A DNA stretch of 64,000 bases from Bdellovibrionales bacterium (GCA_965219095.1 OZ244719.1:448001-512000), one strand, 5' to 3'; numbered from the stretch's first letter, positions 1 to 58,772 are shown. Numbers and translations are program-made. The notes: generated by a model not told the origin, from the letters alone.

Positions 1-1543
1 CTTGGTTTTAAATCTTCAAACAAACCATAAAAACCCTTTGGAAGTTTATCAGAGTGACGTTGATTTTCTTCCTCCATTTTGATTCTAAACTTGGGTTATA
101 ACTGGAGAAAGGAGCATAAAAATTTTCTTTTGCCCCTATACATGGGGGCAGTGTCCCCATGTTGACCCCTAAATTGTAACTCAGTTAAGAAACCGACTTA
201 CTGTTAACTTAAGTCCTATGTATTTTGAGAACTTAAGCCTTTTGGAGATCTCTTCTGGAACCTTATGCTACAAAAGAATGTCGAATTATTTTTTGGAATT
301 GGTATTACTAAAAACTTTTGGTTTAAAGTGTTTGGCATTAATAATGCTTGCACTACTTCCTAAAGCTCGAATCACAAAAAGACCTTCTTTCTCAGCCTTT
401 CTAGCTGAACCTTGATTGAACTTAAGATAAGCTACAGCACCATAAATTATTTTATCTTTATACAAAGGAAGCATTTGTTTAAAGTTTTTTAATTTGTTTA
501 TAAAATGAGTTAAATCTTTTAGCCATAAGGTAGTCTTGACTTCTGTCACAACCACTTCACTGCCATTAACTACAATAATGTCGAATTCAAAAGGCTCATC
601 ATTCCATATCCCGGAAGACTCTCGAGAAATACTCTGCACTTCAATGTTTCTTTCTTGAAGAAGTTTAACTAAATCACCTTTTACCAGAGCCTCCATAAGC
701 TTTCCCCATTGACCTGTGAAAAGTTCGTCTAACTTTGCTATACGTTTATCAGACTTTATAAACTGACGATCGGTCTCAAGTTTTGAGTCTTTTAACAAAC
801 GCTCTGTTTCTTTGTGGGCTTTTGCGGTTTCTTTTTGAGATTCTTTGAGTTGGCGATCAGTCTCTTTTTGAGCTTTAGAGGTTTCTTTGAGTTGGCGATC
901 AGTCTCTTTTTGAGCTTTGGCATTCTCTTTTTGAGCTTTAGCGATTTCTTTTTGAGATTCTTTGAGTTGGCGGTCAGTCTCTTTTTGAGCTTTGGCATTC
1001 TCTTTTTGAGACTTTGCCAGTTCTTGAGTTTCTTTAGCAACAGCTTGAATCGAAGCCCATACAGCTTTAGGAATTGAATGATTGGTTTTTTTTAAAGACA
1101 TGCGGTTATAATAATATAAAAAAACTTTCTTTTCAAGTGATTTTAAGAGAATTTCTTTCAAATAGCCTCACTGCAACATCTCTCTCTAACCTACTGTAAT
1201 ATAACAGGAAAATAAGAAAGTACCAGAAAGATGTCGCTAGAGATAATACAACAATTAAATCCTGGCTTTCAAAAGTAAGTACAAAAGAAATTAAAGTTTG
1301 TTTTTAATCAAAACTATCGTGATTCTCATATGCGTTCTTGTACGGAGTTTTGTCGTGATCAACTAGGTTCAATGTAGGGGAAAAGTCTTAACATTCGGGA
1401 ATAGATGGGTAGGTTAATTTATTATTTTCTTTTTGTTTTTTAGTGATTCTGCAAACTTACAAAAGTTTACAAATCAATTTATAGGAATTCTTGCAGCAGT
1501 TGCCATTCCTGCATTCGATGGGTTTAGAAAAAAAGCACGAAGC
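1..1543. repeat. Inverted repeat of 26807-28349 (distal end of a small element plus pilin core); may extend beyond window start
   Basis: Position p maps to 28350-p; identical ORF translations (286..1161 vs 27189..28064); identity ends at the AGT/GGT codon of the pilin. Confidence 0.95.
286..1101 (-). CDS. Coiled-coil heptad-repeat protein with C-terminal PD-(D/E)XK-like domain (DUF3782-like)
   Basis: KAQKETDRQLKE repeats, then EFDIIVVNG..VTEVK; ATG at 1101 preferred over TTG at 1161. Confidence 0.75.
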   Translation of the reverse strand: MSLKKTNHSIPKAVWASIQAVAKETQELAKSQKENAKAQKETDRQLKESQKEIAKAQKENAKAQKETDRQLKETSKAQKETDRQLKESQKETAKAHKETERLLKDSKLETDRQFIKSDKRIAKLDELFTGQWGKLMEALVKGDLVKLLQERNIEVQSISRESSGIWNDEPFEFDIIVVNGSEVVVTEVKTTLWLKDLTHFINKLKNFKQMLPLYKDKIIYGAVAYLKFNQGSARKAEKEGLFVIRALGSSASIINAKHFKPKVFSNTNSKK

Positions 1544-1894
1544 AGTGAAGCTAAAACTAACTTAGGGGCTCTTTATACAGCAGAAAAAGCCTACTTTTAT
1601 GAAGGTGATAAATATTCAGAAGTCCTAGCTACTATAGGATTTGAGGAACCTACTGGAACACGCCACTATGCTGTTGGATTTAAAGCTACTTGTGCTACGG
1701 GTAGTTCTGCTGAATGTTACCCATCAACTGCCGGCAGCACCACCACCAAAATTACTGCGATTGCAGGGAAAACCGGGACAACCTGTGAGCTAAACTCTGC
1801 AGGTGATGAATTCATAGCTTGTGCTGAAGGAGAAACAGCTTCGACAAATTCCAACTGGCAAATTAATCATGATAAAAGTTTGAGTCCACTATAA
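1481..1894 (+). CDS. pilA: Type IV major pilin 3' cassette C1 (no leader, presumably silent)
   Basis: IGILAAVAIPAFDGFRKKARSSEAKTNL pilin alpha-1 helix, 4 Cys, no GFxLIEL upstream. Confidence 0.9.
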   Translation: MGILAAVAIPAFDGFRKKARSSEAKTNLGALYTAEKAYFYEGDKYSEVLATIGFEEPTGTRHYAVGFKATCATGSSAECYPSTAGSTTTKITAIAGKTGTTCELNSAGDEFIACAEGETASTNSNWQINHDKSLSPL

Positions 1895-1913
1895 AATGCT
1901 TAAACTTCATTTT

Positions 1914-1942
1914 AAAACCCCTCCCTTTTTTGGAGGGGTTTT
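1914..1942. terminator. Bidirectional intrinsic terminator between C1 and integrase
   Basis: AAAACCCCTCC-loop-GGAGGGGTTTT. Confidence 0.85.
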
Positions 1943-2020
1943 TCTTTTCTTAACTCACAAAATCCAAGCTAAAAAAACCCATTCATTTTGCTTTTTGAAG
2001 TGGTTTTAAATCTTTACAAT

Positions 2021-3223
2021 TCAACTGCTAGGATCACTTTCCCTTATCCTTAATGAGGACTCATTTACAGTCTTTTGAGGGTGTGTAAGTGATTTTGTAA
2101 GTGATTTCGATTCGTACATGCTAGCTGTTCTTTCTGCCATATCAGAATTTATTAAAGCTACCGCTTTAGCATACCTTTGAGTCATAGCTTGATCTGTATG
2201 CCCAAGACTTGCTTGCACAGCGGAAAGACTTTTTGTCGCCATAAGTGCCATTGTGGCATAAGTATGACGGCAAATATGAGTCCCTCTCCAAGGAAGATTG
2301 CAGGCCTTAAAGGACTTATCAAAAGCCCAGCGAATGCTTGTATAAGACACAATTTCACCTTCTCTTGAATGAAAGACTAAGGGATTTTCGGGAGACTCAC
2401 TTTTCATAACCCTTAACAACTCCACAAGTCTCTCTGGAAGAACCAAAAGCCTGTTAGATGCTTTCGTTTTAGTACTCTCACAGAGAGTTATTTTGTTACC
2501 TCCCCAATCAGCTGTCCTTACCACACGTACAAACTTTTCTTCAAAGACAACTTCTTTCCACAAAAGCCCACAAGCTTCACTCACTCTAGCTCCTGTTAAA
2601 ATCATAAACTTTGCCAGTCTATAATAAACAGGGTTAGATATTTTCTGAAGCTTTTGAAGCCAAAGCTGTATTTCTTCTGGTCTAGCAAAGTAGTCAGGTC
2701 GTCTTAGTTTTTGAGTTGTCTCGTAGCAAATGTCTCTATGCATTTTCACTACAGGAACAACAAAGCTTGGATCAACGTAATTTCTCCACCAGTTTAGAAC
2801 AGCTACAAGTCGCCTAAACTCTGTTTTAAAACTCTGTCTTTGTCTACACTTCTTAGTTTTCTTTTGAAACCAAGAAATCCAAAGGCTTATCTCCTTTGCC
2901 TTTAAGTCTAACATCTTGACTTTATTTAAGGGGCTGTTAACTGAAAGATTTTTCAGATTCAATAAGATTTTTCTCTGGCTGGAAGCTCTCAGTTTAGGCA
3001 GATACTCTTTGATGTACTTTTCTACACAATCGCAAAAAAGCAATTCTTTAAGTTCTTTTTCTTCTATAGTTTCACCTTTTTCAAGGCGATCTTTTTCTCT
3101 ATCATGCCAAATGTAAGCTTGAGTTTTGTTTTCAAAAACTTTACTCGAAAGCCTCACTCCTCTGACATACACTTGAGCTTGATAGACGTTCTTTTTTTTT
3201 CTTTTAATTTTAGTTACAGACAT
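2021..3223 (-). CDS. Tyrosine integrase (type A)
   Basis: TGARVSE, HICRH and LGH..MTQRY catalytic motifs; 400 aa with N-terminal arm-binding-like region. Confidence 0.95.
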   Translation of the reverse strand: MSVTKIKRKKKNVYQAQVYVRGVRLSSKVFENKTQAYIWHDREKDRLEKGETIEEKELKELLFCDCVEKYIKEYLPKLRASSQRKILLNLKNLSVNSPLNKVKMLDLKAKEISLWISWFQKKTKKCRQRQSFKTEFRRLVAVLNWWRNYVDPSFVVPVVKMHRDICYETTQKLRRPDYFARPEEIQLWLQKLQKISNPVYYRLAKFMILTGARVSEACGLLWKEVVFEEKFVRVVRTADWGGNKITLCESTKTKASNRLLVLPERLVELLRVMKSESPENPLVFHSREGEIVSYTSIRWAFDKSFKACNLPWRGTHICRHTYATMALMATKSLSAVQASLGHTDQAMTQRYAKAVALINSDMAERTASMYESKSLTKSLTHPQKTVNESSLRIRESDPSS

Positions 3224-3474
3224 GATTTGAACTCCTTTCGTTCAATCCATTGCTGTAAGCGAGAAGACCTAAAATAAACCTTTCGGCCTATTTTTACATA
3301 AGGGATTTTCCTTAAAGAAACCCAATTTTGTAAAGTCTTCTTAGATAAACCTAAATTTTCTGAAAGCTCCTCAATAGTTATTAAATTGTCAAAGAACAAG
3401 CCCTTTTTTTGAGGGCGAATAGTGTTCTCTAAACTACTACTTTTCTTGATTGGTTTCAATTCTTTTTTATTCAT
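3214..3474 (-). CDS. Excisionase-like HTH protein
   Basis: ITIEELSENLGLSKKTLQNWVSLRKIPYVKIG; overlaps integrase start; AAGGAG RBS. Confidence 0.85.
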   Translation of the reverse strand: MNKKELKPIKKSSSLENTIRPQKKGLFFDNLITIEELSENLGLSKKTLQNWVSLRKIPYVKIGRKVYFRSSRLQQWIERKEFKSCL

Positions 3475-3539
3475 TTTTATTTCTCCTTTCAAAATATAAC
3501 GAGGGAGCTTAAAGCTCCCTCATTTGGTATTCTAAGCCT

Positions 3540-4160: not shown

Positions 4161-5349
4161 GTCTTCTCATTTCTCCAAGCCTTTCTTCTTTTTTTCTTTA
4201 GCATTGTAAACTTGAAGTAAAATTTGCTTGTTTTGAAGTTTATCAATAAGAAGAGCTTGACCTCTTTTTAAAGACTTAAAAACATCAAAATCCACTTTCA
4301 TCTTTTTGGTGTTAAAAAGTGAACCTAAGCCTGTTTTTTCAAACTCGCTTAACATCTCTTGTGATGACACTTGAAAGGTCATAGCTTTATCTTCTATAGT
4401 TCCACAAACAGAAGACCATGTTTCACAGTCTTGAGGGACATCTTGACGGAAGATCAGCTTATAAGCAGTGTTACCTAAAATCTGATCCGAAAACTCAGAA
4501 GATACAGCTTTTAAATCAGCCAAGCCTTGACAAAAAAGATGAACCCCTATTTAGAGCTTCTGATCATTTTAAGAAGGTCGCTAAAATCTCTTGTTGCAAA
4601 AGAGCCAAATTCGTCAATAAATATCCCTGCAAAGTTAAACTTAGGCGCTATTTGTCCTGCATGAATTTGACTGCTTATAACTTTCAAGTCTTGCACAATC
4701 ATTTTGCCTAAACGTCTTGCAAAATCACCATATCCGTTTGTGTTCAGTTGAAAATAAGCCACCTGACCTTTTTCCAAAATCTCAACTAAATCAATTTGAC
4801 ACTTTGAAGAAGAAAGAAGATGAGAAAACTCTCTAGAGTTTAAAATCTCAACCTGAGCTTTTAATCCTGCAAGGTCTTCTTTTTTAATTTGAGATAAAGA
4901 AGCTACATCATCTTCCATCCCTTCCAGCTCTTTTTTCTCCATAAATTCTTTGTGAGAGTTGTTGAGGGCTTGTTTTAATTCTTTAAGATTCATTTTCTTT
5001 TTTAGAGCTTCAAAACAAGAAAGCAAGATAGAAAGATACTGACTGGCTTGTGAAGCATAATAATCATGAGTAAAACTAAGGCCAAGCATCAGTTTCGACC
5101 TCACTTGTTCACTTGTTCCATACTTCAAAGGATCGTAGGACAAGCTCTTTTCAGGCTGTGCAAGAGAAAAAAGCTTAAAGTCTTCCTCTTTTCTTCCTAA
5201 CTCACAAAAAAGGAATTTTATCATCTCTATGTCCTTTATTTCCCCCTTAGGATCAAGGATCACAAGAGGGTGTTTATGCAAAAAACTGTGCCTCAGTAAA
5301 TTCATCATCAAGGTTGTTTTTCCTGTGCCTGTCGCTCCTGTAACAAGTA

Positions 5350-6758
5350 ATACCAATTACAGAAATTAATTCGACATTTTTATGTTCAAATTTAAAATTT
5401 TAAAATTGACTTAAGGAAAAGTTTCAATTAGGAGGCTTTAAAAAAGTTTTTTTTGAAGGGAGGTTGAGTTTTCATAAGATATGTTTATTTTATGTATATC
5501 TATTGTTGTGTGAATCGATTGATGGGTTAAAATAAGTGTAAAAAAGTGAGGTTAAGATGTAAAATGAAAAAAATCAGTTACGCAATTTAATTTATAGGTT
5601 CAAATTAATTTACAAGCTTGATTCATCTTGTTGTTTTGCCCAAGATCGAGTGCATAATTTTTTAATCCTGCCCTCCTGATCGCAAAAAGTATTCCAGGCC
5701 TCACAACAAGTATTCAGTATATGGTCATAGTTTTTAAAACATGCATTCGATAATTTGATCCTTCGTAATTGTTGCCAGACTTGTTCCATGGGATTTAATT
5801 CTGGACTATAAGGAGGTAAAGGCATCAGGGATAAATTCTTAGGAACTATCAAAGTCTCTGTGGTATGCCAACTGGCTCTGTCCATTAAAACAATTCCATG
5901 ATAGTTTTCTTGAATATTTTTAGATATCTCATCTAAGTGAATTTGCATCATCCCTGAATTACATTCCGGTAAAACCCAAGCACAGCCTTTATCTTTATCC
6001 GGACAAACTGCTCCAAAAATATAAGTGGATAAAAATTGTCTTTGTCTCACAACTCTAGGTCGTGTGCCTTTTCTTGCCCAAATCCTGCTTAAAGAACCTT
6101 GCTGGCCTATTCTGCATTCATCCTGCCACCAAATCTCTATTTTATGAGTCTGAATCTTTTCCTTTATTTTCTCCACCTCTTCTGGAAAATGTTCCTTAAA
6201 CTGTTCCATAGCTTCTTGTGAACTTTTAGGATGAAGAGAACGACCACTGATCCATACAATATTAAGACGGTCTAAAAGAGCATAAACCCCAGAAAGAGAA
6301 TAGCAACAGTCAAATTCATTTGCTAAAAGTTCCTGTATTCCCTTTGCTCCTATGCTTCCTCCTTCTCTCTTGTCTTGAATTTCATCTAACTTGATTTTGA
6401 AGTTCTCTTCTTCTGTCACTGGTAAACGAGGCTTGCGCCCTCTGCCTTCTCGATCTATCAACCCCTCGTAATCAAAGTCTACAAAAGACTGTAACCAGGA
6501 TTTGATACTGTGACGGTGATAGAAAACTATACTTGCTGTTTCTTGAATCGATTTTCCTTCTTGCATATGCTGCAAAGCTTGGAGTTTTATCTTGATGTTG
6601 GCACTTCTTTCTACTTTGTAAGTAGCTAGAAAATTATACCCTTGAATCTGTGTAACTAAATCTTTTTTCGACATGACTCTAAAAATTTAACAGAGTTTGA
6701 TCAAAAAGCCAGGACGCAATGCGTTAAAAGAATGTCGAATTAATTTTTGGAAATGGTA
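5350..6758 (-). mobile_element. IS630-family insertion sequence
   Basis: Imperfect terminal IRs (TACCA..AAATTAATTCGACA), flanking TA duplication; empty site visible at ~48930. Confidence 0.9.
5610..6674 (-). CDS. IS630-family transposase
   Basis: WQDE, MDRASWH, LPPYSPELNPME DDE motifs. Confidence 0.95.
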   Translation of the reverse strand: MSKKDLVTQIQGYNFLATYKVERSANIKIKLQALQHMQEGKSIQETASIVFYHRHSIKSWLQSFVDFDYEGLIDREGRGRKPRLPVTEEENFKIKLDEIQDKREGGSIGAKGIQELLANEFDCCYSLSGVYALLDRLNIVWISGRSLHPKSSQEAMEQFKEHFPEEVEKIKEKIQTHKIEIWWQDECRIGQQGSLSRIWARKGTRPRVVRQRQFLSTYIFGAVCPDKDKGCAWVLPECNSGMMQIHLDEISKNIQENYHGIVLMDRASWHTTETLIVPKNLSLMPLPPYSPELNPMEQVWQQLRRIKLSNACFKNYDHILNTCCEAWNTFCDQEGRIKKLCTRSWAKQQDESSL

Positions 6759-14715: not shown

Positions 14716-14717
14716 TT

Positions 14718-37000: not shown

Positions 37001-37003
37001 AAA

Positions 37004-37320: not shown

Positions 37321-37423
37321 GAGGATGTTCCATTTCTCGGTGGAATTATTAGAGGGCGATTTCATGTTTAAGCGACCTTTCTTTGTTTTGCAATCATTTT
37401 TTCTAAGTTTTCTTTAAAGTTTT

Positions 37424-38801: not shown

Positions 38802-38996
38802 TGTAATAGTCGCAACTTGATCTGACAGTTACCCTTTCTGGGTTGATAAAAAACTGTCTGTCAGTTTGCGTTCTGTTCAATCATCTTTTTTATGAAAGAA
38901 AGAACGTAAGTTGGTTTCTTAACAGCCCTTGACTCCTACGAGGAGGATGTTTCTTAGATGCTTTTAACCACAGATTCTCGGGAGGAGCCGATATTT

Positions 38997-44810: not shown

Positions 44811-44812
44811 AT

Positions 44813-46907: not shown

Positions 46908-47131
46908 AGTAAATTAACCAGCTCATATTTTTAATCAGTGTAGTAGTTGTAACTTATCCCTATCAATCTTTCCAGAAAGACTTTTTTCAGTAACTTAACT
47001 TTGTCTAACAGACCTCTTTAGTGACTTTTTTACGATGTGTTCGTGATTGGTTCATGATTTTTTAAAAACCAAGAGCAGCAAAAGTTTGCTTTTTTCCTCA
47101 GAACAAAGTAAGTAGTCGCACGAGAAACTCT

Positions 47132-47524
47132 TTACGACAAGTTAAAAAGAAAAAACTGATCAGCTATTTCTATATCATTTCCTTTTCTTTCGGGATCAGG
47201 AAAAAACTCAGGCACTCTATCTCTTACTTGATAATAAATATGTCTATGAGATTCTTGTTTTTTAAGCTCACTTTTATAATAACCTTCATCAAAAAGTTCT
47301 TTAAGTTCATAAAATTCATTTTCTAAAACATTTGGCGTTTCATTTTCTTGAAACACTATAGAGTAAGACTCAAAAAACTCTAAAAGTTGAAGTTCAATAA
47401 TCTTTGAATCAATTTCTTTTTTATCAGCAAAGCTAAAATCCACACCTGAGCCTCCTGCCCATATAAAACTTTTAAAAGAAAAAGTAAAGAATAAAACTGT
47501 TATTATGAATAGGTTTTTAGCCAT
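47132..47524 (-). CDS. Hypothetical exported protein
   Basis: Near-identical to 8165..8557. Confidence 0.65.
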   Translation of the reverse strand: MAKNLFIITVLFFTFSFKSFIWAGGSGVDFSFADKKEIDSKIIELQLLEFFESYSIVFQENETPNVLENEFYELKELFDEGYYKSELKKQESHRHIYYQVRDRVPEFFPDPERKGNDIEIADQFFLFNLS

Positions 47525-48065
47525 GATTTTCTCCTTTTGGTTTTATGTTAGACGTTTTTATTATGCCTAAATTTATGTTATAAATAGATTTTTCAGATTT
47601 TTCTTCATTTTTTAAAGAGTTCTCTGAGCTTTCAAGAAGTTCAGAGATAATTCTGTCAAAATCCTGTTTAAATTTATTCATAGCTTCTTTGCTACAGGCC
47701 ACTGTATAATTTGAGATTTTTTCTATAGTTTCGGGTTTTATTTGAGCTAAGAGGTATCTTGTTTTTAAAATATGTTGATGTATGGCCTGATTTTTTGTGA
47801 TTTCTTTTTTTGTGATGACAAAGTTTCTCTTCCCAGCTTTATAAAAACTCCCTTCTTTGACAAGAAAGCCTAACTCCTCTAATCCGTCAATAGCATCTGT
47901 AGCTTCTTCTAAGGTTACAGAGAAGGTTTCTGCTACGACTTGTGGTGAAGCGGGAAGGTTTTCTATTGTGAGGTGAGCATGAAGTTCTGGCCAAAAAGGA
48001 TCACAAAGCCAATTTTCTAAAAGCATGTTATCTCTTTCTTGAATGCTTTGTTTTACTTTTAACAT
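47517..48065 (-). CDS. DUF4423/TIGR02147-like protein
   Basis: Near-identical to 7624..8172. Confidence 0.55.
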   Translation of the reverse strand: MLKVKQSIQERDNMLLENWLCDPFWPELHAHLTIENLPASPQVVAETFSVTLEEATDAIDGLEELGFLVKEGSFYKAGKRNFVITKKEITKNQAIHQHILKTRYLLAQIKPETIEKISNYTVACSKEAMNKFKQDFDRIISELLESSENSLKNEEKSEKSIYNINLGIIKTSNIKPKGENHG

Positions 48066-48490
48066 AATTTAGCCTGCTTTCTTTTATACCTCATCTCTTG
48101 CAGGTGTTCTTTTAATCTTGTGCGTGAGTTTTCTATGGTTTTATTTTTATCAGCACAACGTTCACTAGAAGCTATAACATCTTTAAGAATCGATCTTTTA
48201 TCATGTTTTGAAAGCCCCTTTAAAATAAGCTCCATGTCTTCTCCTATAGGGGTATCGCTTTGCTCTCTTCTTTCTAACTCATCTCTCACAATAGCTCTTA
48301 AGTTAATGCCTGCTAGTTTAAGGACTCTCATAAAATCATAAGAGTTTATATGACTTTTACCGTTTAGGAAAGTGCTTATAGTATTCTTATTGAGTTCTAA
48401 AAGACGAGCAGCTTCAAGAACTCCAATGCTATTATAAGTCAATAATGAATCTAAGTTATTTAAAAAAGCAAAATCTCTGTTGATCTTCAT
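48059..48490 (-). CDS. XRE-like HTH protein
   Basis: Near-identical to 7199..7630. Confidence 0.7.
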   Translation of the reverse strand: MKINRDFAFLNNLDSLLTYNSIGVLEAARLLELNKNTISTFLNGKSHINSYDFMRVLKLAGINLRAIVRDELERREQSDTPIGEDMELILKGLSKHDKRSILKDVIASSERCADKNKTIENSRTRLKEHLQEMRYKRKQAKLC

Positions 48491-48516: not shown

Positions 48517-50112
48517 ATGATTTTCTTTTTAGGGGGAGTGATTGCACATAAAGAGATTAAAAAAGCTCCTTATGCTTCTAAAAGGCTTGCGAAAAACTAT
48601 AAATTTATAATTTGTATTTTTATTGGCCTTGTCATTTTAGAGACTCTTTTTTATCTACTTGTTTTAGACCTCTTGTTTTTCTGGTTAGCACAGCTTTTTG
48701 TATTTTGGATCTTTCAGGCTTTTTTACTTTTTATAACTTGTAATTTTTGGCTTAAGGATGAGAACATAAAATCCAAAAAACGCATTACAGTGGATCATTT
48801 GGAGGGAGAAGAAGTTGATTTCAAAACTTTTGAGAAGGCTCTTGAGTCTAAAGACTCAGCTCCTATAGGAGCCAATTTTGTCAAAAAAGAGCTTGTAAGT
48901 TTACCTGTCAGTTCTAGAACAGAGCATTTACTTGTTACAGGAGCGACAGGCACAGGAAAAACAACCTTGATGATGAATTTACTGAGGCACAGTTTTTTGC
49001 ATAAACACCCTCTTGTGATCCTTGATCCTAAGGGGGAAATAAAGGACATAGAGATGATAAAATTCCTTTTTTGTGAGTTAGGAAGAAAAGAGGAAGACTT
49101 TAAGCTTTTTTCTCTTGCACAGCCTGAAAAGAGCTTGTCCTACGATCCTTTGAAGTATGGAACAAGTGAACAAGTGAGGTCGAAACTGATGCTTGGCCTT
49201 AGTTTTACTCATGATTATTATGCTTCACAAGCCAGTCAGTATCTTTCTATCTTGCTTTCTTGTTTTGAAGCTCTAAAAAAGAAAATGAATCTTAAAGAAT
49301 TAAAACAAGCCCTCAACAACTCTCACAAAGAATTTATGGAGAAAAAAGAGCTGGAAGGGATGGAAGATGATGTAGCTTCTTTATCTCAAATTAAAAAAGA
49401 AGACCTTGCAGGATTAAAAGCTCAGGTTGAGATTTTAAACTCTAGAGAGTTTTCTCATCTTCTTTCTTCTTCAAAGTGTCAAATTGATTTAGTTGAGATT
49501 TTGGAAAAAGGTCAGGTGGCTTATTTTCAACTGAACACAAACGGATATGGTGATTTTGCAAGACGTTTAGGCAAAATGATTGTGCAAGACTTGAAAGTTA
49601 TAAGCAGTCAAATTCATGCAGGACAAATAGCACCTAAGTTTAACTTTGCAGGGATATTTATTGACGAATTTGGCTCTTTTGCAACAAGAGATTTTAGCGA
49701 CCTTCTTAAAATGATCAGAAGCTCTAACATAGGGGTTCATCTTTTTTGTCAAGGCTTGGCTGATTTAAAAGCTGTATCTTCTGAGTTTTCGGATCAGATT
49801 TTAGGTAACACTGCTTATAAGCTGATCTTCCGTCAAGATGTCCCTCAAGACTGTGAAACATGGTCTTCTGTTTGTGGAACTATAGAAGATAAAGCTATGA
49901 CCTTTCAAGTGTCATCACAAGAGATGTTAAGCGAGTTTGAAAAAACAGGCTTAGGTTCACTTTTTAACACCAAAAAGATGAAAGTGGATTTTGATGTTTT
50001 TAAGTCTTTAAAAAGAGGTCAAGCTCTTCTTATTGATAAACTTCAAAACAAGCAAATTTTACTTCAAGTTTACAATGCTAAAGAAAAAAAGAAGAAAGGC
50101 TTGGAGAAATGA
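48517..50112 (+). CDS. Type IV coupling protein (TraD/TrwB/VirD4-like ATPase), intact
   Basis: N-terminal TM segments, GATGTGKT, LDPKG, IFIDEF and QILGNT motifs. Confidence 0.88.
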   Translation: MIFFLGGVIAHKEIKKAPYASKRLAKNYKFIICIFIGLVILETLFYLLVLDLLFFWLAQLFVFWIFQAFLLFITCNFWLKDENIKSKKRITVDHLEGEEVDFKTFEKALESKDSAPIGANFVKKELVSLPVSSRTEHLLVTGATGTGKTTLMMNLLRHSFLHKHPLVILDPKGEIKDIEMIKFLFCELGRKEEDFKLFSLAQPEKSLSYDPLKYGTSEQVRSKLMLGLSFTHDYYASQASQYLSILLSCFEALKKKMNLKELKQALNNSHKEFMEKKELEGMEDDVASLSQIKKEDLAGLKAQVEILNSREFSHLLSSSKCQIDLVEILEKGQVAYFQLNTNGYGDFARRLGKMIVQDLKVISSQIHAGQIAPKFNFAGIFIDEFGSFATRDFSDLLKMIRSSNIGVHLFCQGLADLKAVSSEFSDQILGNTAYKLIFRQDVPQDCETWSSVCGTIEDKAMTFQVSSQEMLSEFEKTGLGSLFNTKKMKVDFDVFKSLKRGQALLIDKLQNKQILLQVYNAKEKKKKGLEK

Positions 50113-50118
50113 GAAGAC

Positions 50119-50351
50119 ACCCAACCCAACCACTCTTTTATAACCTATCACTACTGTGTACCTGTGGTGACGAAAGTGAGTTAGGGTGGTCAAATCTTAA
50201 ACCCTTTCAACAAGTCGTAAGAATGGGCGTAATAAGGCCCTTTGATAAGGTCTTGTTTTCATTGGGTTTAGGATTTGACCACCCTAACTCACTTTCTAAT
50301 CTCTCTGGTAGATGTGGTGTGTGATGTGTGGTGTGAGTGGTTGGGTTGGGT
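50119..50351. other. Long nested hairpin (large-element type)
   Basis: Mirror of 3928-4160 with a compensatory pair change. Confidence 0.85.
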
Positions 50352-50511
50352 AGTAGGTTGGTGGAAAAGGAAAGGAAAGAAAATTTTTTTAAAGCTAGTC
50401 TTAAAAAAATTTTCTGTTTGTTAAATCTGCGGACGAACTTTTATAAGCTCTCCGCACTATCCTCTCTTGAAGCTCAAGAAAGGATGTAAATCAATAAGGA
50501 AAGGAGTAGAA

Positions 50512-50739
50512 ATGAAACTAAAAACTACAATTTATGACGCACTCTCAGTCAGAGCTTATAAAGACTCTCAGGGAAACGAAAAAGTGGACTACCAAAGAAT
50601 AGGTGTAGCCTTTGGTTTAAAGAACAAAAACGGTTTTTCTTTGAAGCTCACAAGCTTGCCTGTCTCAGGGGAGCTTGTGGTTATAGAAAGAATACCAAAA
50701 AAAGAGCAGAAAAATGATACAGAAGAAATGCCCTTTTAA
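50512..50739 (+). CDS. Small putative ssDNA-binding protein
   Basis: Same protein as 3540..3767. Confidence 0.55.
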   Translation: MKLKTTIYDALSVRAYKDSQGNEKVDYQRIGVAFGLKNKNGFSLKLTSLPVSGELVVIERIPKKEQKNDTEEMPF

Positions 50740-50804
50740 AGGCTTAGAATACCAAATGAGGGAGCTTTAAGCTCCCTCGTTATATTTTGAAAGGAGAAAT
50801 AAAA

Positions 50805-51065
50805 ATGAATAAAAAAGAATTGAAACCAATCAAGAAAAGTAGTAGTTTAGAGAACACTATTCGCCCTCAAAAAAAGGGCCTGTTCTTTGACAATTTAATA
50901 ACTATTGAGGAGCTTTCAGAAAATTTAGGTTTATCTAAGAAGACTTTACAAAATTGGGTTTCTTTAAGGAAAATCCCTTATGTAAAAATAGGCCGAAAGG
51001 TTTATTTTAGGTCTTCTCGCTTACAGCAGTGGATTGAACGAAAGGAGTTCAAATCATGTCTGTAA
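50805..51065 (+). CDS. Excisionase-like HTH protein
   Basis: Same protein as 3214..3474. Confidence 0.85.
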   Translation: MNKKELKPIKKSSSLENTIRPQKKGLFFDNLITIEELSENLGLSKKTLQNWVSLRKIPYVKIGRKVYFRSSRLQQWIERKEFKSCL

Positions 51066-52258
51066 CTAAAATTAAAAGAAAAAAAAAGAACGTCTATCAA
51101 GCTCAAGTGTATGTCAGAGGAGTGAGGCTTTCGAGTAAAGTTTTTGAAAACAAAACTCAAGCTTACATTTGGCATGATAGAGAAAAAGATCGCCTTGAAA
51201 AAGGTGAAACTATAGAAGAAAAAGAACTTAAAGAATTGCTTTTTTGCGATTGTGTAGAAAAGTACATCAAAGAGTATCTGCCTAAACTGAGAGCTTCCAG
51301 CCAGAGAAAAATCTTATTGAATCTGAAAAATCTTTCAGTTAACAGCCCCTTAAATAAAGTCAAGATGTTAGACTTAAAGGCAAAGGAGATAAGCCTTTGG
51401 ATTTCTTGGTTTCAAAAGAAAACTAAGAAGTGTAGGCAAAGACAGAGTTTTAAAACAGAGTTTAGGCGACTTGTAGCTGTTCTAAACTGGTGGAGAAATT
51501 ATGTTGACCCAAATTTTGTTGTTCCTGTAGTGAAAATGCATAGAGATATTTGCTATGAGACAACTCAAAAACTAAGACGACCTGACTACTTTGCTAGACC
51601 AGAAGAAATACAGCTTTGGCTTCAAAAGCTTCAGAAAATATCTAACCCTGTTTATTATAGACTGGCAAAGTTTATGATTTTAACAGGAGCTAGAGTGAGT
51701 GAAGCTTGTGGGCTTTTATGGAAAGAAGTTGTCTTTGAAGAAAAATTTGTACGTGTGGTAAGGACAGCTGATTGGGGAGGTAACAAAATAACTCTCTGTG
51801 AAGACACTAAAACGAAAGCATCTAACAGGCTTTTGGTTCTTCCAGAGAGACTTGTGGAGTTGTTAAGGGTTATGAAAAGTGAGTCTCCCGAAAATCCCTT
51901 AGTCTTTCATTCAAGAGAAGGTGAAATGGTGTCTTATACAAGCATTCGCTGGGCTTTTGATAAGTCCTTTAAGGCCTGCAATCTTCCTTGGAGAGGGACT
52001 CATATTTGCCGTCATACTTATGCCACAATGGCACTTATGGCGACAAAAAGTCTTTCCGCTGTGCAAGCAAGTCTTGGGCATACAGATCAAGCTATGACTC
52101 AAAGGTATGCTAAAGCGGTAGCTTTAATAAATTCTGATATGGCAGAAAGAACGGCTAGCATGTACGAATCGAAATCACTTACAAAATCACTTACGCACCC
52201 TCAAAAGACCCTAAATGAGTCCTCATTAAGGATAAGGGAAAGTGATTCTAGCAGTTGA
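51056..52258 (+). CDS. Tyrosine integrase (type A)
   Basis: Catalytic motifs intact; 5 aa differences from 2021..3223 by my count. Confidence 0.95.
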   Translation: MSVTKIKRKKKNVYQAQVYVRGVRLSSKVFENKTQAYIWHDREKDRLEKGETIEEKELKELLFCDCVEKYIKEYLPKLRASSQRKILLNLKNLSVNSPLNKVKMLDLKAKEISLWISWFQKKTKKCRQRQSFKTEFRRLVAVLNWWRNYVDPNFVVPVVKMHRDICYETTQKLRRPDYFARPEEIQLWLQKLQKISNPVYYRLAKFMILTGARVSEACGLLWKEVVFEEKFVRVVRTADWGGNKITLCEDTKTKASNRLLVLPERLVELLRVMKSESPENPLVFHSREGEMVSYTSIRWAFDKSFKACNLPWRGTHICRHTYATMALMATKSLSAVQASLGHTDQAMTQRYAKAVALINSDMAERTASMYESKSLTKSLTHPQKTLNESSLRIRESDSSS

Positions 52259-52384: not shown

Positions 52385-52774
52385 TTATGGTAGTACACTC
52401 AAACTTTTCTCATGATTAATTTGCCAGTTGGAATTTGTCGAATCCCCGTTTCCTTCAGCACAAGCTATGAATTCATCACCTGCAGAGTTTAGCACACAGG
52501 TTGCCCCTATAATCTTAGCAACTACCGTAGCGGCAGTTGATGGGTGACATTTATCCGTACAAGCAGTTTCTTTAAATCCAACAGCGTAGTGGCGTGTTCC
52601 AGAAGGTTCCTCAAATCCTATATTAGCTAGGACGTCTGAATATTTATCACCTTCATAAAGGTAGGCTTTTTCTGCTGTATAAAGAGCCCCTAAGTTAGTT
52701 TTAGCTTCACTACTTCGTGCTTTTTTTCTAAACCCATCGAATGCAGGAATGGCAACTGCTGCAAGAATTCCTAT
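52385..52774 (-). CDS. pilA: Type IV pilin 3' cassette C6
   Basis: Conserved IGILAAVAIP start; related to but distinct from C1. Confidence 0.9.
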   Translation of the reverse strand: MGILAAVAIPAFDGFRKKARSSEAKTNLGALYTAEKAYLYEGDKYSDVLANIGFEEPSGTRHYAVGFKETACTDKCHPSTAATVVAKIIGATCVLNSAGDEFIACAEGNGDSTNSNWQINHEKSLSVLP

Positions 52775-53164
52775 AAATTGATTTGTAAACTTTTGTAAGT
52801 TTGCAGAATCACTAAAAAACAAAAAGAAAATAATAAATTAACCTACCCATCTATTCCCGAATGTTAAGACTTTTCCCCTACATTGAACCTAGTTGATCAC
52901 GACAAAATTCCGTACACGGACGCATATAAAAATCACGATAGTTCTAAAACAAACTTTAATTTCTTTTGTACTTACTTTTGAAAGCCAGGATTTAATTGTT
53001 GTATTATCTCTAGCGACATCCTTTCTGGTGCTTTTTTATCTGGTACTTTCTTATTTTCCTGTTACGTTACAGTAGGTTAGTGAGGGATATCGCAGTGAGG
53101 CCATTTGAAAGAAATTCTCTTAAAATCACTTGAAAAGAAAGTTTTTTTATATTATTATAATTGT

Positions 53165-53917
53165 ATGTCTTTAAAAAAACTCAATCATTCAATTCCTAAA
53201 GCTGTATGGGCTTCGATTCAAGCTGTTGCTAAAGAAACTCAAGAACTAGTAAAGTCTCAAAAAGAGAATGCCAAAGCTCAAAAAGAGACTGATCGCCAAC
53301 TCAAAGAATCTCAAAAAGAAATCGCTAAAGCTCAAAAAGAGACTGATCGCCAACTCAAAGAATCTCAAAAAGAAATCGCTAAAGCTCAAAAAGAAATCGC
53401 TAAAGCTCAAAAAGAGACTGATCGCCAACTCAAAGAATCTCAAAAAGATACTAATCAACGTATAGCACAACTCAACGAACTTTTCACAGGTCAATGGGGG
53501 AAGCTTATGGAAGCCTTTGTAAAAGGTGATTTAGTTAAACTTCTTCAAGAAAGGAACATCGATGTTAATGATATATGCTCTAATAGAGAGAAGACCTTTG
53601 AAGGTCAAAAATATGAGTTTGATATCATAGCCATTAATGGAAAAGAAACAGTAGCTGTGGAAGTAAAGACTACTTTACGGCTGAAAGACTTAACTTATTT
53701 TTTAAAAAAGTTAAAAACCTTTAAAAAGATGTTTCCTGAATATGAAGATAAGAAAATATACGGAGCTATGGCTTTTATAAAAGTGAATGAAGGAGCTGAT
53801 AGGAGAGCTGAAAAAGATGGTTTATTTGTGATTCAAGCTGTAGGAGATAGTGGAAGCATTATTAATGCCAAACACTTTAAACCAAAGATCTTTTGTAATA
53901 ACAATTCCAAAAAATAA
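53165..53917 (+). CDS. Coiled-coil plus PD-(D/E)XK-like protein (DUF3782-like), divergent C-terminal allele
   Basis: N-terminus as in 27249..28064; EFDIIAING..VEVK domain differs. Confidence 0.75.
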   Translation: MSLKKLNHSIPKAVWASIQAVAKETQELVKSQKENAKAQKETDRQLKESQKEIAKAQKETDRQLKESQKEIAKAQKEIAKAQKETDRQLKESQKDTNQRIAQLNELFTGQWGKLMEAFVKGDLVKLLQERNIDVNDICSNREKTFEGQKYEFDIIAINGKETVAVEVKTTLRLKDLTYFLKKLKTFKKMFPEYEDKKIYGAMAFIKVNEGADRRAEKDGLFVIQAVGDSGSIINAKHFKPKIFCNNNSKK

Positions 53918-55353: not shown

Positions 55354-56089
55354 ATGTATGAAGCAAAAAACAAAAAAAGAGTTCTTATGAAGATAGAAGC
55401 ACCTCAAAACCTTGTAAGCTTAAAAGCTCAAATCCAGACCCTTACTTCTCCAGAATTTAGAAACTCCTCTATACATGAAGAAAAAGAAATCGATCTCCTG
55501 GATGTTATGAAAAAAAATCAAATAGCCTATTTCCAGTTGAATTTAAACAGCTATGGTTTTTTAGGTAAGAAAATCGGTAAAATTCTAGTTCAAGATCTAA
55601 AGGTTATAAGCTCTCAGATTCAATCAGGACAAGTGGATTTTAAGCCTTTACTTTTAGGGGTCTTGATTGATGAATTTGGATCTTTTGCTACACCTGATTT
55701 TTCAGATTTTTTAAAGCAAGTAAGATCTGCTGGTACAGGAGTTCACTTATTTTGCCAAGGCTTAGCTGATTTAAATGTTGTAAGTCAGAGTTTTAGCAAT
55801 CAAGTGTTGGGAAGTGCGGCCACTAAAATCATACTTCGACAAGATGTGAAGAGGACTCTCGAAAAATGGGCTTTTACAGCTGTCACTAGGGGCACTGTAG
55901 GTAGGAGTTTTCAGGTCAGTGAACGCATTCTGGGGAACTTAAAAAAACAGGCTTAGGGAATCTTTTGGAGACCAAAAAAATGAAGATCGAACATGATGTT
56001 TTTAAGAGCTTAAAAGTAGGTCAGGCTGTACTCATTGATAAGATCAAAACCTCACAAGATTTGTTTCAAATTTTTAGCTTAAAGGAGTG
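55354..56089 (+). pseudogene. C-terminal part of coupling protein, frameshifted
   Basis: Copy of 31635-32370. Confidence 0.8.
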
Positions 56090-56155
56090 AGCTTTATGAG
56101 TAGTTTTAAAAAAATTCTGGAATTTTCTTATAGTGCTAAAAACATGTCTTGCATG

Positions 56156-56319
56156 CACCCCCTTTCCTTTTCCCTTTGTCTTTATACACCCAACTCTGCT
56201 AAAACCTTCGGTTTTCACCGTGACCACCCTCTCCCGCTCATACTTTTTTTAGTATGGGAGAGGGTGGTCACGGTACCACAGAGTTGGGTGTATAGATGTG
56301 GGAAGAGGAAAGGGGGGTG
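56156..56319. other. Long nested hairpin (small-element type)
   Basis: Copy of 32437-32600. Confidence 0.85.
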
Positions 56320-56640
56320 TGAGAGGAGGAAAAAATAGAGAAAATTTTTAGAACTTTTAAATTAAAAATTTTCTCTATCAGGTTAAAAAATTTTTGTTTT
56401 TTTAAGTTTAACTTGAGTTTTTTTAATGGCCGAGAAAGGAGTAAAAAAAAAGGTCAAAAAACAAATAACAAATCAATCATGAAAGGAGTAGCATAATGCA
56501 AAGCAAGAAAAGTAAAATTTACGACACTTTTTTGAGTGCGTAAATTCATCATATTCAGTGAGGAAAAGTCAGAGTTCTTAGAAGAAACCAAATGAGGAAG
56601 TTTTTTAAGCTTCTTCGCCATATTTTGAAAGGAGAAAAAA

Positions 56641-56898
56641 ATGGATAAAAAAGAATTGAAACCAATTAAAAAAGGTAGTAGTTTAGAGAACACTATTCGC
56701 CCTCAAAAAAAGGGCCTGTTCTTTGACAATTTAATAACCGTAGAGGAATTAGCCTTAGCGTTTGGGCTGTCTCCTAGAACGATTAAAAATTGGGTGAGTT
56801 TAAGACAAATCCCCTTTATTCAGTTCAGAAGAAGGACTTACTTTCTTAAAGACAGTATCCATAGATGGCTTCAACAAAAGGAGAAATCATGTCAATAA
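56641..56898 (+). CDS. Excisionase-like HTH protein
   Basis: Identical to 32922..33179. Confidence 0.85.
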   Translation: MDKKELKPIKKGSSLENTIRPQKKGLFFDNLITVEELALAFGLSPRTIKNWVSLRQIPFIQFRRRTYFLKDSIHRWLQQKEKSCQ

Positions 56899-58064
56899 CC
56901 AAACGTAAAAGGAAAAATAAAATAACATATCAAGCAGAAATTTATGTAAGAGGAATTCGTCTGAAAGCAAAAAGCTTTCAAACAAAAACAGAAGCCTGTA
57001 TATGGCACGATAAGGAAAAAAAACGTCTTCAAGAAGGAAGAGTTTCTCTTCAAGAAGAGTTAAGAGAACTTTTCTTTGAAGACTGTGTGAGAAGGTATCT
57101 TAAAGAGTATGTTCCTACTTTAAGAGATTCCAGTCAAAAGAAGATTCAACTTCTTTGCGAGAGGTTTTTTCTACAAAGTCCTTTAGCAAAAACAAAAATG
57201 TCAGATATAGACCATGTCAGTATTGACACTTGGATTGACTGGCTTTTTAGAAGCTTTAAAAACACTGTCAACCGCCATTCTTTTAGAATAGAGTTAAGGC
57301 GTCTTGGCTCTGTTCTTCACTGGTGGAGAAACTACCTTGATCCAAGCTTTAGCTTTCCTATTGTTCGTGGTCATAGAAATCGGTGTTATGTGAAGAAGCG
57401 AGAATCTAAGGTGAAAAGGCCAGATTACTTTGCTAAACCTGAAGAGGTGAGGGCTTGGCTTAACGAACTTAAGAAGATTCAAAACCCTGTTTATTACCGT
57501 TTAGCTCAGTTTATGATTTTAACAGGAGCGAGAGTAAGTGAAGCTTGTGGACTTATGTGGAGTGAAATTGATTTTAAGAATCGTTTTGCAAGAGTTGTTA
57601 GAACAGCTGACTGGTCTTCTGAAAAACCTCAAATTCTAGAAACCACAAAGACTAAGACTTCTGTAAGAGTTTTAACTCTTCCTGAAAAGCTCATAGAGCT
57701 TTTGTATGAAATGAAAGAGGAATCTAATAATCCTCTTGTGTTTTACTCTTCAGAAGGAAAAGTCGTTCCTTACACTACCATTCGTTGGGCCTTTGATAAG
57801 TCTTTTAAGACCTGCAATCTTCCTTGGAGAGGAACTCATATTTGTCGTCATACTTATGCCACAATGGCTTTAATGGCGACAAAAAGCCTCTCAGCTGTCC
57901 AAGCAAGTCTTGGGCATAAGGATCAAGCTATGACTCAAAGGTATGCAAAAGTGGTGGCTCTCATTAACTCGGATATGGCAGAAAAAACAGCTCAGATGTA
58001 TGAAATGAACTCTTTAGGTTCATCTCCATCACGACAGATCACGACGTCTTTACAGACAAAATGA
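56889..58064 (+). CDS. Tyrosine integrase (type C)
   Basis: Same protein as 33170..34345. Confidence 0.95.
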   Translation: MSITKRKRKNKITYQAEIYVRGIRLKAKSFQTKTEACIWHDKEKKRLQEGRVSLQEELRELFFEDCVRRYLKEYVPTLRDSSQKKIQLLCERFFLQSPLAKTKMSDIDHVSIDTWIDWLFRSFKNTVNRHSFRIELRRLGSVLHWWRNYLDPSFSFPIVRGHRNRCYVKKRESKVKRPDYFAKPEEVRAWLNELKKIQNPVYYRLAQFMILTGARVSEACGLMWSEIDFKNRFARVVRTADWSSEKPQILETTKTKTSVRVLTLPEKLIELLYEMKEESNNPLVFYSSEGKVVPYTTIRWAFDKSFKTCNLPWRGTHICRHTYATMALMATKSLSAVQASLGHKDQAMTQRYAKVVALINSDMAEKTAQMYEMNSLGSSPSRQITTSLQTK

Positions 58065-58282
58065 ACTTTAGGATCAAAAGGATACTGGTAGTTGAATTTT
58101 AAAATTTTTTAAAATTTAAAAAAAAGAATTCTAGCAGGAACACTTGGAATGAAAAACTCACGACGGAAATCACGACTTCTCACTAAAATAGCTAAGATAT
58201 CACTCATAAAGTAGAGCGTGAAAGAAGTTCTAGCAGTGGAAAGTTTAAGAGTTTTGAAGTAAAAAAAGACCTACTATAAATA

Positions 58283-58309
58283 AACCCCCCTTTTTCTAAA
58301 AAGGGGGTT
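58283..58309. terminator. Intrinsic terminator
   Basis: AACCCCCCTTTTT-loop-AAAAGGGGGTT. Confidence 0.75.
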
Positions 58310-58326
58310 CTAGAAAGGTTTTCAGA

Positions 58327-58770
58327 TTAAGTACAGTCAGCTCCTGCGCCATTTGATTTTAAAATTTTAAGATTATCCATCTGCCAATTTGTTCCAACAC
58401 TATCAAGCTTATTGCTTGTGTGATTTCCAAAAGCTCCAGCTTTGAAGGTTGTAGTTGTGTGTTCACATGCAGGTCCAGGAGCCCTTTTAGTGCCGGTAGC
58501 ATGAGTAGAGTCGTGTTTTGCAGCAGCAGCCGCTGTTGCTGGGCATGTTCCCACTACAGCACTCGCCTTAAATCCGATAGAAAAATATTGCGTTCCCTCG
58601 GGTTTTCCAAAACCTATCAAATCCAAGTTATTACAATAATCGCCTTGTTCATAAAAGTACGCTTTTTCTGCTGTATAAAGAGCCCCTAAGTTAGTTTTAG
58701 CTTCACCGTCTCGTGCTTTTTTTCTAAACCCATCGAATGCAGGAATGGCAACTGCTGCAAGAATTCCTAT
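58327..58770 (-). CDS. pilA: Type IV pilin 3' cassette C7 (only partly in the ORF track)
   Basis: Manual translation IGILAAVAIPAFDGFRKKARDGEAKTNLGALYTAEKAYFYEQGDYCNNL, in frame with ORF 58327..58626. Confidence 0.9.
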   Translation of the reverse strand: MGILAAVAIPAFDGFRKKARDGEAKTNLGALYTAEKAYFYEQGDYCNNLDLIGFGKPEGTQYFSIGFKASAVVGTCPATAAAAAKHDSTHATGTKRAPGPACEHTTTTFKAGAFGNHTSNKLDSVGTNWQMDNLKILKSNGAGADCT

Positions 58771-58772
58771 AA

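Follow-up and report, generated by a model that had tools for sequence, protein, structure and literature searches.

A stacked array of tyrosine-integrase islands carrying alternative pilin 3' ends at the major type IV pilin gene of a Bdellovibrionales bacterium

Background

The head of the major type IV pilin controls adhesion, the uptake of DNA and the adsorption of phages, and in Bdellovibrio-like predators it also controls entry into prey. It is known to vary through gene conversion, through small inversion switches and through allelic replacement. We describe an array of leaderless pilin cassettes in a Bdellovibrionales bacterium, most of them on islands that encode their own tyrosine integrase (Int) and excisionase (Xis), at a single chromosomal gene for a PilA-like major pilin. 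The window that we analysed is a stretch of 64,000 nucleotides (nt) of a 3.1-Mb genome (GCA_965219095.1 OZ244719.1:448001-512000, here G000:C1:448001-512000); coordinates given without a contig are those of the window. The cassettes within it are termed c1 to c7, P0 is the tail of the full-length pilin gene, P1 is a cassette to the left of the window, and E(x) denotes the unit, or island, that belongs to cassette x. The evidence set out below suggests that an island of ~95 kb probably arose as tyrosine-integrase islands of one family entered the pilin gene time after time by site-specific integration. These islands probably target codons of the pilin helix and supply a tail of their own, with the result that each integration would give pilA a new tail.

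The nearest precedent for such a replaced gene end is the element e14 in icd, whose excision fuses icd to the displaced fragment icdC and yields a chimera (PMC13626634). The elements e14 and phage 21 in icd resemble the units described here in that an element with a tyrosine integrase lies inside a coding gene, brings a substitute 3' end and has the displaced tail at its far end. They differ in that a single element brings a nearly identical tail and leaves the protein unchanged in practice, whereas here a hypervariable surface head is replaced and at least eight units are stacked at one gene, in two orientations.

In the shufflon of R64 and IncI plasmids, the tyrosine recombinase Rci, acting with sfx sites, is reported to join the constant N-terminus of the pilin PilV to alternative C-termini in frame (PMC5430464; 10.1101/2024.10.25.620183). 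That system occupies a compact plasmid locus, has a single recombinase, works by inversion only, varies a minor pilin and has no genes within its segments, whereas here the segments are islands with their own int, xis and cargo genes, the target is a chromosomal major pilin, and deletion and inversion would both be needed. Like the site here, sfx is conserved on one side only. Compared by its features, our locus departs from a shufflon in having seven integrases of three types, cargo-bearing segments and a chromosomal PilA-like target.

The pilE/pilS system of Neisseria consists of one expression locus and many promoterless, 5'-truncated silent copies with conserved segments, as does the array here. 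The pilS copies are unlinked to recombinases or mobile elements and act by non-reciprocal homologous transfer, whereas seven of our nine copies sit on int/xis units, and the copies share a single sharp boundary. In Moraxella, Piv, a recombinase of the IS110 (DEDD) type, inverts two pilin 3' ends, tfpQ and tfpI, that lie tail to tail with the site in the constant 5' coding region and without mobile islands; our central pair c3/c4 resembles this layout. Arrays also arise by accretion of integrative and conjugative elements, integrative and mobilizable elements and cis-mobilizable elements, through serial insertion at a regenerated attachment (att) site that leaves the target protein unchanged. 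The promoterless units of an integron rely on a platform promoter, with the proximal one expressed, and have one platform integrase and attC hairpins. The present array differs from both in that there is an integrase per unit and heads are expressed through in-frame fusion; upstream of the full-length gene there is no integrase, and the units are bounded by the pilin core rather than by attC.

With an identical core repeat at both unit ends and an element-borne, in-frame substitute tail, the system agrees, in the features compared, with an integrative island that replaces a gene end, and it lacks the features that mark shufflons, integrons and pilE/pilS. By analogy, its logic of tail replacement would be that of e14 in icd and its outcome, a constant N-terminus with varying ends, that of the shufflon. 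What is new is the combination: a hypervariable major-pilin head is replaced, each head is on its own defence island, and eight or more units are stacked at one gene. We found no account of elements that insert into a pilin gene and substitute its 3' part, in a search whose coverage excluded most subscription journals; prophages reportedly land in the competence pilin gene of pneumococci.

Results

The first-pass annotation of the window had described seven leaderless pilin domains that begin abruptly at a common sequence, stay nearly constant for a short stretch and then diverge, and had ascribed them to integrative elements that each carry a replacement pilin 3' end. The 20-nt sequence TTATAGGAATTCTTGCAGCA indeed has seven exact matches in the window (1479+, 20284+, 25893+, 26871-, 35036-, 52776- and 58772-), at the places and on the strands given there, while dinucleotide-preserving shuffles contain 0.02 on average and reached seven in none of 100 trials. 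Genome-wide there are ten copies of the core, of which nine are at the pilA locus (five plus, four minus). Alignment of the seven window copies with 100 nt of upstream flank places the abrupt onset of likeness at TTATAGG, and all nine pilin-locus copies have their homology boundary at one and the same base. The 57 nt that lie 3' of GGA (Gly14) are identical in eight of the nine genomic cassettes, c3 having one change; some 50 nearly constant nt follow, after which the sequences diverge.

All nine array cassettes are open from GGA to a stop over 128-147 codons, those in the window ending in TAA, and all nine have a predicted hairpin 3' of the stop, with folding energies of -16 to -25 kcal/mol in the 95 nt after the stop of the window cassettes. 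None of c1 to c7 has a leader, since the frames upstream carry stops and no GFxLIE motif. A Pfam scan of the open reading frames (ORFs) of c1, c3, c4 and c6 returned Pilin_PilA or Pilin_GH for all four. On the plus strand lie c1 (1479-1894; core and leaderless pilin 3' part, 136 codons from Gly14 to TAA, Pilin_PilA 4.6e-8, hairpin), c2 (20284-20705; 138 codons) and c3 (25893-26341; 147 codons), and on the minus strand c4 (26429-26871; 145 codons), c5 (34606-35036; 141 codons), c6 (52385-52776; 128 codons) and c7 (58327-58772; 146 codons), which heads the inverted array. c3 and c4 stand tail to tail and share one terminator hairpin, and a common 3' untranslated segment follows c1, c2, c4 and c6. 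Eight distinct heads are found among the nine cassettes, with 46-82% amino-acid identity between those that differ and cysteine pairs visible in every one; the expressed head is that of c5, which is 100% identical in amino acids to the tail of the full-length pilin. The seven domains first described therefore stand, and the array to which they belong is wider than was thought: it begins outside the window.

The annotation had further predicted a native pilin reading AIIGIL, with an ATT codon across the boundary, somewhere in the genome. A complete prepilin gene with the core lies 37 kb to the left of the window, in the same sense as P1 (G000:C1:411277-411774, plus strand). It has the ribosome-binding site AAAGGAGG, its product reads MKKIQKIKKQKG followed by FSLIELMVVVAIIGILAAV..., with the motif GFSLIE, and it shows the features of a class III signal peptide (MKKIQKIKKQKG/FSLIE). 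Its core sits within GCC ATT ATA GGA ATT CTT, which reads AIIGIL as predicted, and TTATAGGAATT falls in codons Ile12 to Ile15 of the mature pilin, within the conserved N-terminal helix. The profile PF07963 (N_methyl) matches at 1.2e-10, over its cut-off, and TIGR02532 (IV_pilin_GFxxxE) at 37.3 bits against a cut-off of 16.3. The nearest sequence match in the PDB is PilA of M. xanthus (8tj2, 3e-17, residues 13-91). An AlphaFold model from a 13-row alignment has a mean predicted local distance difference test score of 52 and is confident for the helix at 15-65 only, with the head below 50. A scan for sigma-70 promoters upstream gave five sites where 3.9 were expected and is uninformative. The upstream neighbours are a transaldolase gene and unknown ORFs, and the genome encodes pilus machinery: two prepilin peptidases (Peptidase_A24), three secretins over cut-off, and PilB/PilT-type T2SSE ATPases with six strong matches and a seventh barely over cut-off. 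About 45 nt upstream of the pilin ATG, the sequence GGCCGATAGGAATAAAG (L011:16229-16245, C1:411229-411245) resembles the junction of flank B with the core, AGCCGATTATAGGAATTC; this may be a chance likeness or an old site.

The full-length gene also ties the expressed head to an island. Starting at the core, 11 nt before GGA, it matches the inverted c5 unit at 99.7% identity for 3,727 nt, and the match continues past the end of the cassette: it covers head and terminator as well as int399, xis85, several small ORFs and a fragment of TraD. The expressed head (V5) belongs to an int399 island that adjoins the leader, in keeping with the earlier proposal that the elements supply the pilin 3' end. 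The unit next to the leader, being 99.7% identical to an inner unit, would represent a recent event.

Seven of the nine array cassettes converge on an intact tyrosine integrase and excisionase. In the window these are c1, c2, c5, c6 and c7, the same five for which the annotation had noted the pairing, and Pfam identifies their five Phage_integrase genes (PF00589, E about 2.7e-21 to 2.6e-20) with an HTH_17 gene overlapping the start of each. The catalytic residues R223, K262, H325, R328, H351 and Y360 are invariant in all ten aligned integrases. For the excisionases, the TIGR01764 excise domain (cut-off 28.8 bits) scores 44.0 and 30.6, with the partner of int399 just below at 27.2. The integrases are of three types, of 399, 400 and 408 amino acids (aa), 63-73% identical among themselves; int399 is present in three copies with 100% identical protein, and the seven integrases and xis genes of the array are all intact.

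Read in the sense of the cassette, a unit consists of core, cassette and hairpin, the convergent integrase and xis genes, small ORFs, cargo, an ORF of 241-291 aa and a distal flank that runs up to the next core. Unit sizes range from 5.6 to 25 kb and the defence cargo is unrelated from one to the next. Units of the int400 type add a 531-aa TraD/VirD4-like coupling protein and a DUF4423 trio; the coupling protein is intact in two units (48517-50112 and C1:426750-428342), its SXT_TraD match being below cut-off, and no relaxase family matched any of the 98 + 84 ORFs scanned. The 241-291-aa ORF closes every unit beside the flank (286-1161, 24807-25532, 27189-28064 and 53105-53917) and has weak PDDEXK/CARF/Csx1/Hjc-like matches. 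Integrase type and distal flank type agree in six of the seven units (int399 with flank A in three, int400 with flank B in two, int408 with flank A'). The exception, E(P1), has int400 and ends in flank A; it is a mosaic, since its distal 4.6 kb, from an IS66 onward, repeats the distal half of the c5 unit with 98.9% identity. Flanks A, B and A' all hold ATTTTTTAnTGATTC ~40 nt before the boundary (1409-1478, 20214-20283, 25823-25892 and the inverted copies), and A and A' have a 6-base-pair hairpin with a compensatory change (AAACTT..AAGTTT against GAACTT..AAGTTC). Both ATTTTTTAnTGATTC and the hairpin are candidate protein-binding sites.

The position of the exchange can be approached from element ends elsewhere in the genome. 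Flanks A, B and A' recur at nine non-pilin sites, each copy ending at the array boundary, and are followed there by 7-11 of the 11 bases of TTATAGGAATT (at least nine at seven sites) and then by unrelated DNA, with junctions such as TTATAGGAATTg, TTATAGGAATa, TTATAcTAATT and TTATAaGAATTCTT. These copies are distal element parts truncated by insertion sequences (ISs), from ~0.17 to 2.8-3.4 kb long and 94-99% identical to array units. The tenth copy of the core, on contig C2, is joined at AGGAATTC to an apparent coding sequence for beta-propeller repeats, not pilin; its cassette carries stops and frame breaks, faces an integrase fragment of 100 residues and is the sole decayed one. From the nine flank junctions and the C2 remnant we infer that exchange falls within or beside TTATAGGAATT, the ~11-nt core, and that the cassette travels with the element; the integrases would then cut at the core. 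Recombination at some unrelated site, which the annotation had named as the finding that would overturn its reading, is not what these ends indicate. We rejected the flanks as independent small transposons because each flank goes with an integrase type and because the two best-preserved copies continue for 2.8-3.4 kb within element bodies; several of the non-pilin copies are only ~170-270 nt long.

The composite island extends over ~95 kb (C1:411.3-506.8 kb), of which the window is the distal two thirds, and P1 is a leaderless cassette at C1:423994. In the plus array the order is leader, P0, P1, c1, c2, c3, and in the opposite-strand array flank C, c7, c6, c5, c4, the two being arranged tail to tail. 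Flank C (58773-59340, minus strand) is made of pieces of multi-copy repeats and is neither a leader nor an element end; at other places the first of these repeats reads on as ...CTCTTTCT/ATAGTAACCC, which weakly resembles the core. An intact paralogous integrase with 46% identity (380 aa, G000:C2:1234172-1235311) lies outside the pilin locus and adjoins a copy of the flank-C repeat. The idea that the inverted array came from another, convergent pilin gene was discarded, the sequence next to c7 being repeat-derived and without a leader.

Synonymous divergence among the cassettes is 0-0.28 in the 36 constant codons, compared with 0.16 to more than 2 (saturated) in the heads, so that the constant part would be either homogenised or constrained at the DNA level. 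The ratio of nonsynonymous to synonymous divergence in the heads is 0.23-0.64, and about 1.0 in the two closest pairs, c1/c6 and c2/c4.

Integrases with 41-47% identity were found in seven of the 60 relatives searched. Among loci drawn from genome and metagenome collections, several of which share a genome so that the counts are not independent, a pilin-like frame lies within 5 kb at 13 of 62 with an integrase of at least 38% identity over at least 200 residues, at 2 of 42 with a weaker or partial match and at 0 of 55 without one; six of the 21 pilin-like frames are leaderless. In two genomes (L123/L053 and L077) a full-length pilin gene points away from an integrase that is followed, on the strand of the integrase, by a leaderless cassette, with inverted repeats of 187-195 nt spaced 2.0-2.4 kb apart around the integrase and a homology boundary at CTGCATAyAATGA (IP/AYNEY). 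Judged by this layout, the arrangement appears to be a two-cassette invertible switch. It has in common with our array the homologous integrase, a leaderless pilin cassette and an abrupt boundary in helix codons, and differs from it in being a ~2-kb flip with integrase and leader inside the segment, a boundary at IP/AYNEY instead of AI/IGIL, and neither cargo nor array. In one of these genomes (G002) the full-length pilin is followed downstream by a leaderless cassette that repeats 300 nt of the expressed tail, in direct orientation and with 100% identity (L053:7383-7682 and 9935-10234), a duplication that echoes that of P0 and c5. A 1.5-Mb genome (G016, L047-L050) holds four modules of full-length pilin, terminator and a shorter integrase (300-340 aa), all on one strand; the four share identical 5' ~120 nt, ribosome-binding site included, the heads diverge and one pilin is frame-broken. 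In a FastTree tree of 60 integrases (midpoint root, no support values read), the three integrases of the window form one clade and the pilin-linked loci are scattered; the tree does not resolve which arrangement is ancestral.

The locus is represented in three public runs from one study by short contigs, in which unique sequence has ~4x depth. Contig depth over the int399 module is 13-17, compared with 4-5 for unique sequence, which fits three copies. A joint 5799>7340 that skips the IS66 was considered as an excision product and is explained by the IS66-free paralogue E(c7). Searched with the integrase profile, metagenome contigs gave about 10 of 80 loci at 40% identity or more; close relatives of the integrase were absent from viral contigs (best 31% identity) and from plasmids (best 25%).

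The genes of the individual units can be laid out as follows. In E(c1), int400 and xis92 (2021-3223 and 3214-3492, minus strand; PF00589 2.6e-20, HTH_17 1.1e-13, TIGR01764 2e-11) converge on c1; beyond them lies a truncated coupling-protein gene (4547-5356, minus strand; DUF87/TrwB) cut by an IS630-type insertion (DDE_3, 5610-6674), and the unit ends in flank B (20120-20283, plus strand), which stops at the core boundary. The 5.6-kb E(c2) has int408 and xis102 (20856-22082 and 22049-22357, minus strand; PF00589 1.6e-20, HTH_17 9.1e-11) and a distal part at 24807-25892, made up of a 241-aa PDDEXK/CARF-like ORF (24807-25532, minus strand) and flank A' up to the boundary. The distal half of E(c5) (26872-31317, minus strand) contains flank A, a 291-aa ORF, two helix-turn-helix genes and an IS66, and its module (31635-34345, plus strand) a C-terminal fragment of TraD (31635-32237), small ORFs, xis85 (32922-33179) and int399 (33146-34345). 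E(c6) ends in flank B (35037-35200, minus strand), and its module (48517-52258, plus strand) consists of the coupling protein (48517-50112), small ORFs, xis92 (50787-51065) and int400 (51056-52258). E(c7) has flank A and a 270-aa PDDEXK/Csx1-like ORF at its distal end (52777-53917, minus strand) and a module at 55354-58064 (plus strand) with a TraD fragment, small ORFs, xis85 (56641-56898) and int399 (56865-58064).

From its domain content, the island cargo appears to be anti-phage defence. That of E(c1) (8829-19691) comprises a Schlafen AlbA_2 and HATPase_c_4 gene (8829-11443) in halves of 241 and 237 aa, split by IS630-type fragments at 9768-10700, and an SDH protease; at 11440-18158 (minus strand) it has an HKD(PLD)-SNF2 helicase of 1091 aa (11440-14715; PADLOC C3a139 'HKD+Snf2', 4e-55) and a type IIG restriction-methylase of 1146 aa (14718-18158; 1e-93), a pair that looks like a two-gene defence module. 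An intact 481-aa homologue of the split Schlafen gene is found at C1:443041-444483. The cargo and conserved genes of E(c6) (35414-48490) include an ISL3, a PDC-M19A-like gene, a pentapeptide protein, a multiubiquitin-E2-E1/JAB-DUF6527 operon (44064-46907) and the DUF4423 trio; the run at 42997-46907 (plus strand) encodes the pentapeptide-repeat protein, Multi_ubiq, Prok-E2_E, ThiF/JAB (E1) and DUF6527, a ubiquitin-like conjugation type seen in defence islands. To the left of the window, E(P1) carries a Druantia type I-like set (C1:431021-441710; L012:16021-19980 and L013:1545-6710) of DruE (1320 aa, E 0), DruD (3e-89), a 948-aa gene and DruA (2e-169), followed by a PDC-S02/YhcG nuclease gene; PDC-S02 and PDC-M19A are candidate defence cargo. 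The genome as a whole is very rich in short repeats and in elements of the ISL3, IS66 and IS630 types, and contig depth in the three public runs is 200-600 over IS66 and ISL3 compared with ~4 for unique sequence.

Discussion

In the reading that we propose, each island carries a pilin tail immediately 3' of its copy of the core; the tail is in frame, lacks promoter and leader, and is made up of a constant stretch of helix, a variable head and a terminator hairpin of its own. Integration would join the chromosomal promoter, the leader and the first 13 residues to the head of the island and displace the earlier tail by one unit. Serial integration at the regenerated leader-proximal site would then leave, for each array, the newest unit by the head and the oldest tail in the centre. 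At least one inversion would have to be added, either between the leader-side core and a pseudo-site in the repeat to the right of the locus or between inverted repeats, and copies of IS66, ISL3 and IS630 bring further rearrangement. Excision between the leader site and a core of the same sense would fuse the leader to that cassette, and inversion would fuse it to any of the four of opposite sense. The first-pass annotation had held that integration or excision of elements changes the expressed pilin. The part of this that concerns the delivery of heads is supported; deletion alone cannot bring the inverted cassettes to the leader, because half of the array is inverted, and heads exchanged between backbones with 99.5% identity indicate a second route, by homologous exchange. 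That deletion and inversion driven by Int and Xis still switch heads in living populations is possible, though we lean against it, and homologous exchange as the main switching route seems improbable to us.

Several observations do not sit easily with construction by serial integration. Four cassettes (c4 to c7) are inverted, and serial integration alone does not yield inversion. The core of c7, at the head of the inverted array, adjoins the interior of a multi-copy repeat, and the reciprocal junction, an element flank followed by ATAGTAACCC, was not found among seven copies of the repeat. Neither c3 nor c4 has an integrase. Near-identical backbones bear different heads (P1 and c1, 99.5%; c5 and c7, 99.6%). 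A cassette of ~450 nt between the core and the integrase-side arm is an unusual attP geometry when compared with lambda-type sites, and the relatives place int and then cassette on the same strand, whereas here the two converge. Some units may no longer move because IS insertions and truncations have damaged them: a coupling gene is cut by an IS630, the int399 units have a TraD fragment only, and IS66 and ISL3 have inserted. No excised circle, empty site or other joining of leader and cassette was seen, but in the public reads the left-flank contig ends at L057:1975, inside the core, and gives no verdict on circles or alternative junctions, and the exact 29-nt core had no match in metagenome contigs.

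The exchanged heads are what one would expect if RecA-type recombination copied silent cassettes into the expression gene in the manner of Neisseria pilE/pilS, the integrases merely delivering cassettes and the flanking homology being the ~100-nt constant region and the conserved 3' untranslated segment. The differences between P1 and c1 and between c5 and c7 are confined to ~400 nt, from the constant part to just past the terminator, and on these grounds we accept that heads are also exchanged by homologous recombination; the synonymous divergence of the 36 constant codons, at least 10-fold below that of the heads, is as homogenisation would give, and the 3' segment is shared by c1, c2, c4 and c6. 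As an account of the whole locus, gene conversion nevertheless seems to us rather improbable, for the identity of the expressed gene with c5 continues for 3.7 kb through int and xis, which fits the integration of a whole unit, the same-base boundary of nine copies is also joined to non-pilin DNA at nine sites, and seven of nine cassettes have int/xis genes of their own. It is likewise improbable, if slightly less so, that the locus is a giant chromosomal shufflon in which resident recombinases only invert and delete at a fixed place and the units never leave, or no longer do. The cores at the pilA locus do lie in both orientations, and relatives with homologous integrases have the two-cassette invertible layout described above; against this, element ends and one cassette are found at other genomic sites, and units of 5.6-25 kb carry an excisionase, a TraD-like coupling protein and unrelated defence cargo.

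A more serious alternative, which we still regard as doubtful, is that the locus is a fossil record: the helix codons would be a safe landing site, the tail would only keep pilA working, as with e14 in icd, and an old, IS-damaged stack would leave the head fixed. The insertions of IS66, ISL3 and IS630, the truncated coupling genes and the IS66-bounded mosaic unit are in line with it, as are the lack of junction variants in the public reads, which give no verdict, and the recombination of icd with displaced icdC on e14 excision (PMC13626634). All seven array integrases and excisionases are intact, however, with three int399 proteins 100% identical; none of the nine cassettes at the pilin locus has lost its open frame, unlike the decayed one at a non-pilin site; and the near-identity of the leader-proximal unit to an inner one makes its arrival recent. 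Mis-joining of a mixed population or of collapsed repeats into an artificial array is a very remote prospect: there are many 3-5-kb repeats at more than 99% identity, and the source is apparently a community sample at ~4x contig depth, but the depth of the int399 module, about three times that of unique flank, is what the assembly would lead one to expect, and the units differ in their cargo and are consistent in flank pairing. Construction of the array by repeated integration of islands that bring their own pilin tails is thus the reading that we prefer.

Conclusions

If islands do re-tail pilA, then a pilin head can arrive horizontally on a mobile island, as the pilus counterpart of phage-borne O-antigen conversion, and the gain, loss or flip of an island would change the surface of the pilus. 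The arrival of anti-phage cargo would be coupled to a change of the likely phage receptor or prey-contact surface, which offers a testable link between defence islands and receptor change, and the locus would be a natural case of an integrase site placed for protein fusions. As a tentative extension, more speculative than what precedes, the helix codons of the pilin may be a landing pad, a universal attachment site for a lineage of tyrosine recombinases in Bdellovibrionota, at which defence islands overwrite the head. The stacked units would form a switchable reservoir, in which Int and Xis, by deleting and inverting between identical cores and with some help from homologous exchange, would change the expressed head within a population, and the two-cassette switches of reduced-genome relatives would be a domesticated form of the machinery. 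The finding would suggest an evolutionary bridge between the integrases of mobile elements and the phase-variation switches of their hosts.

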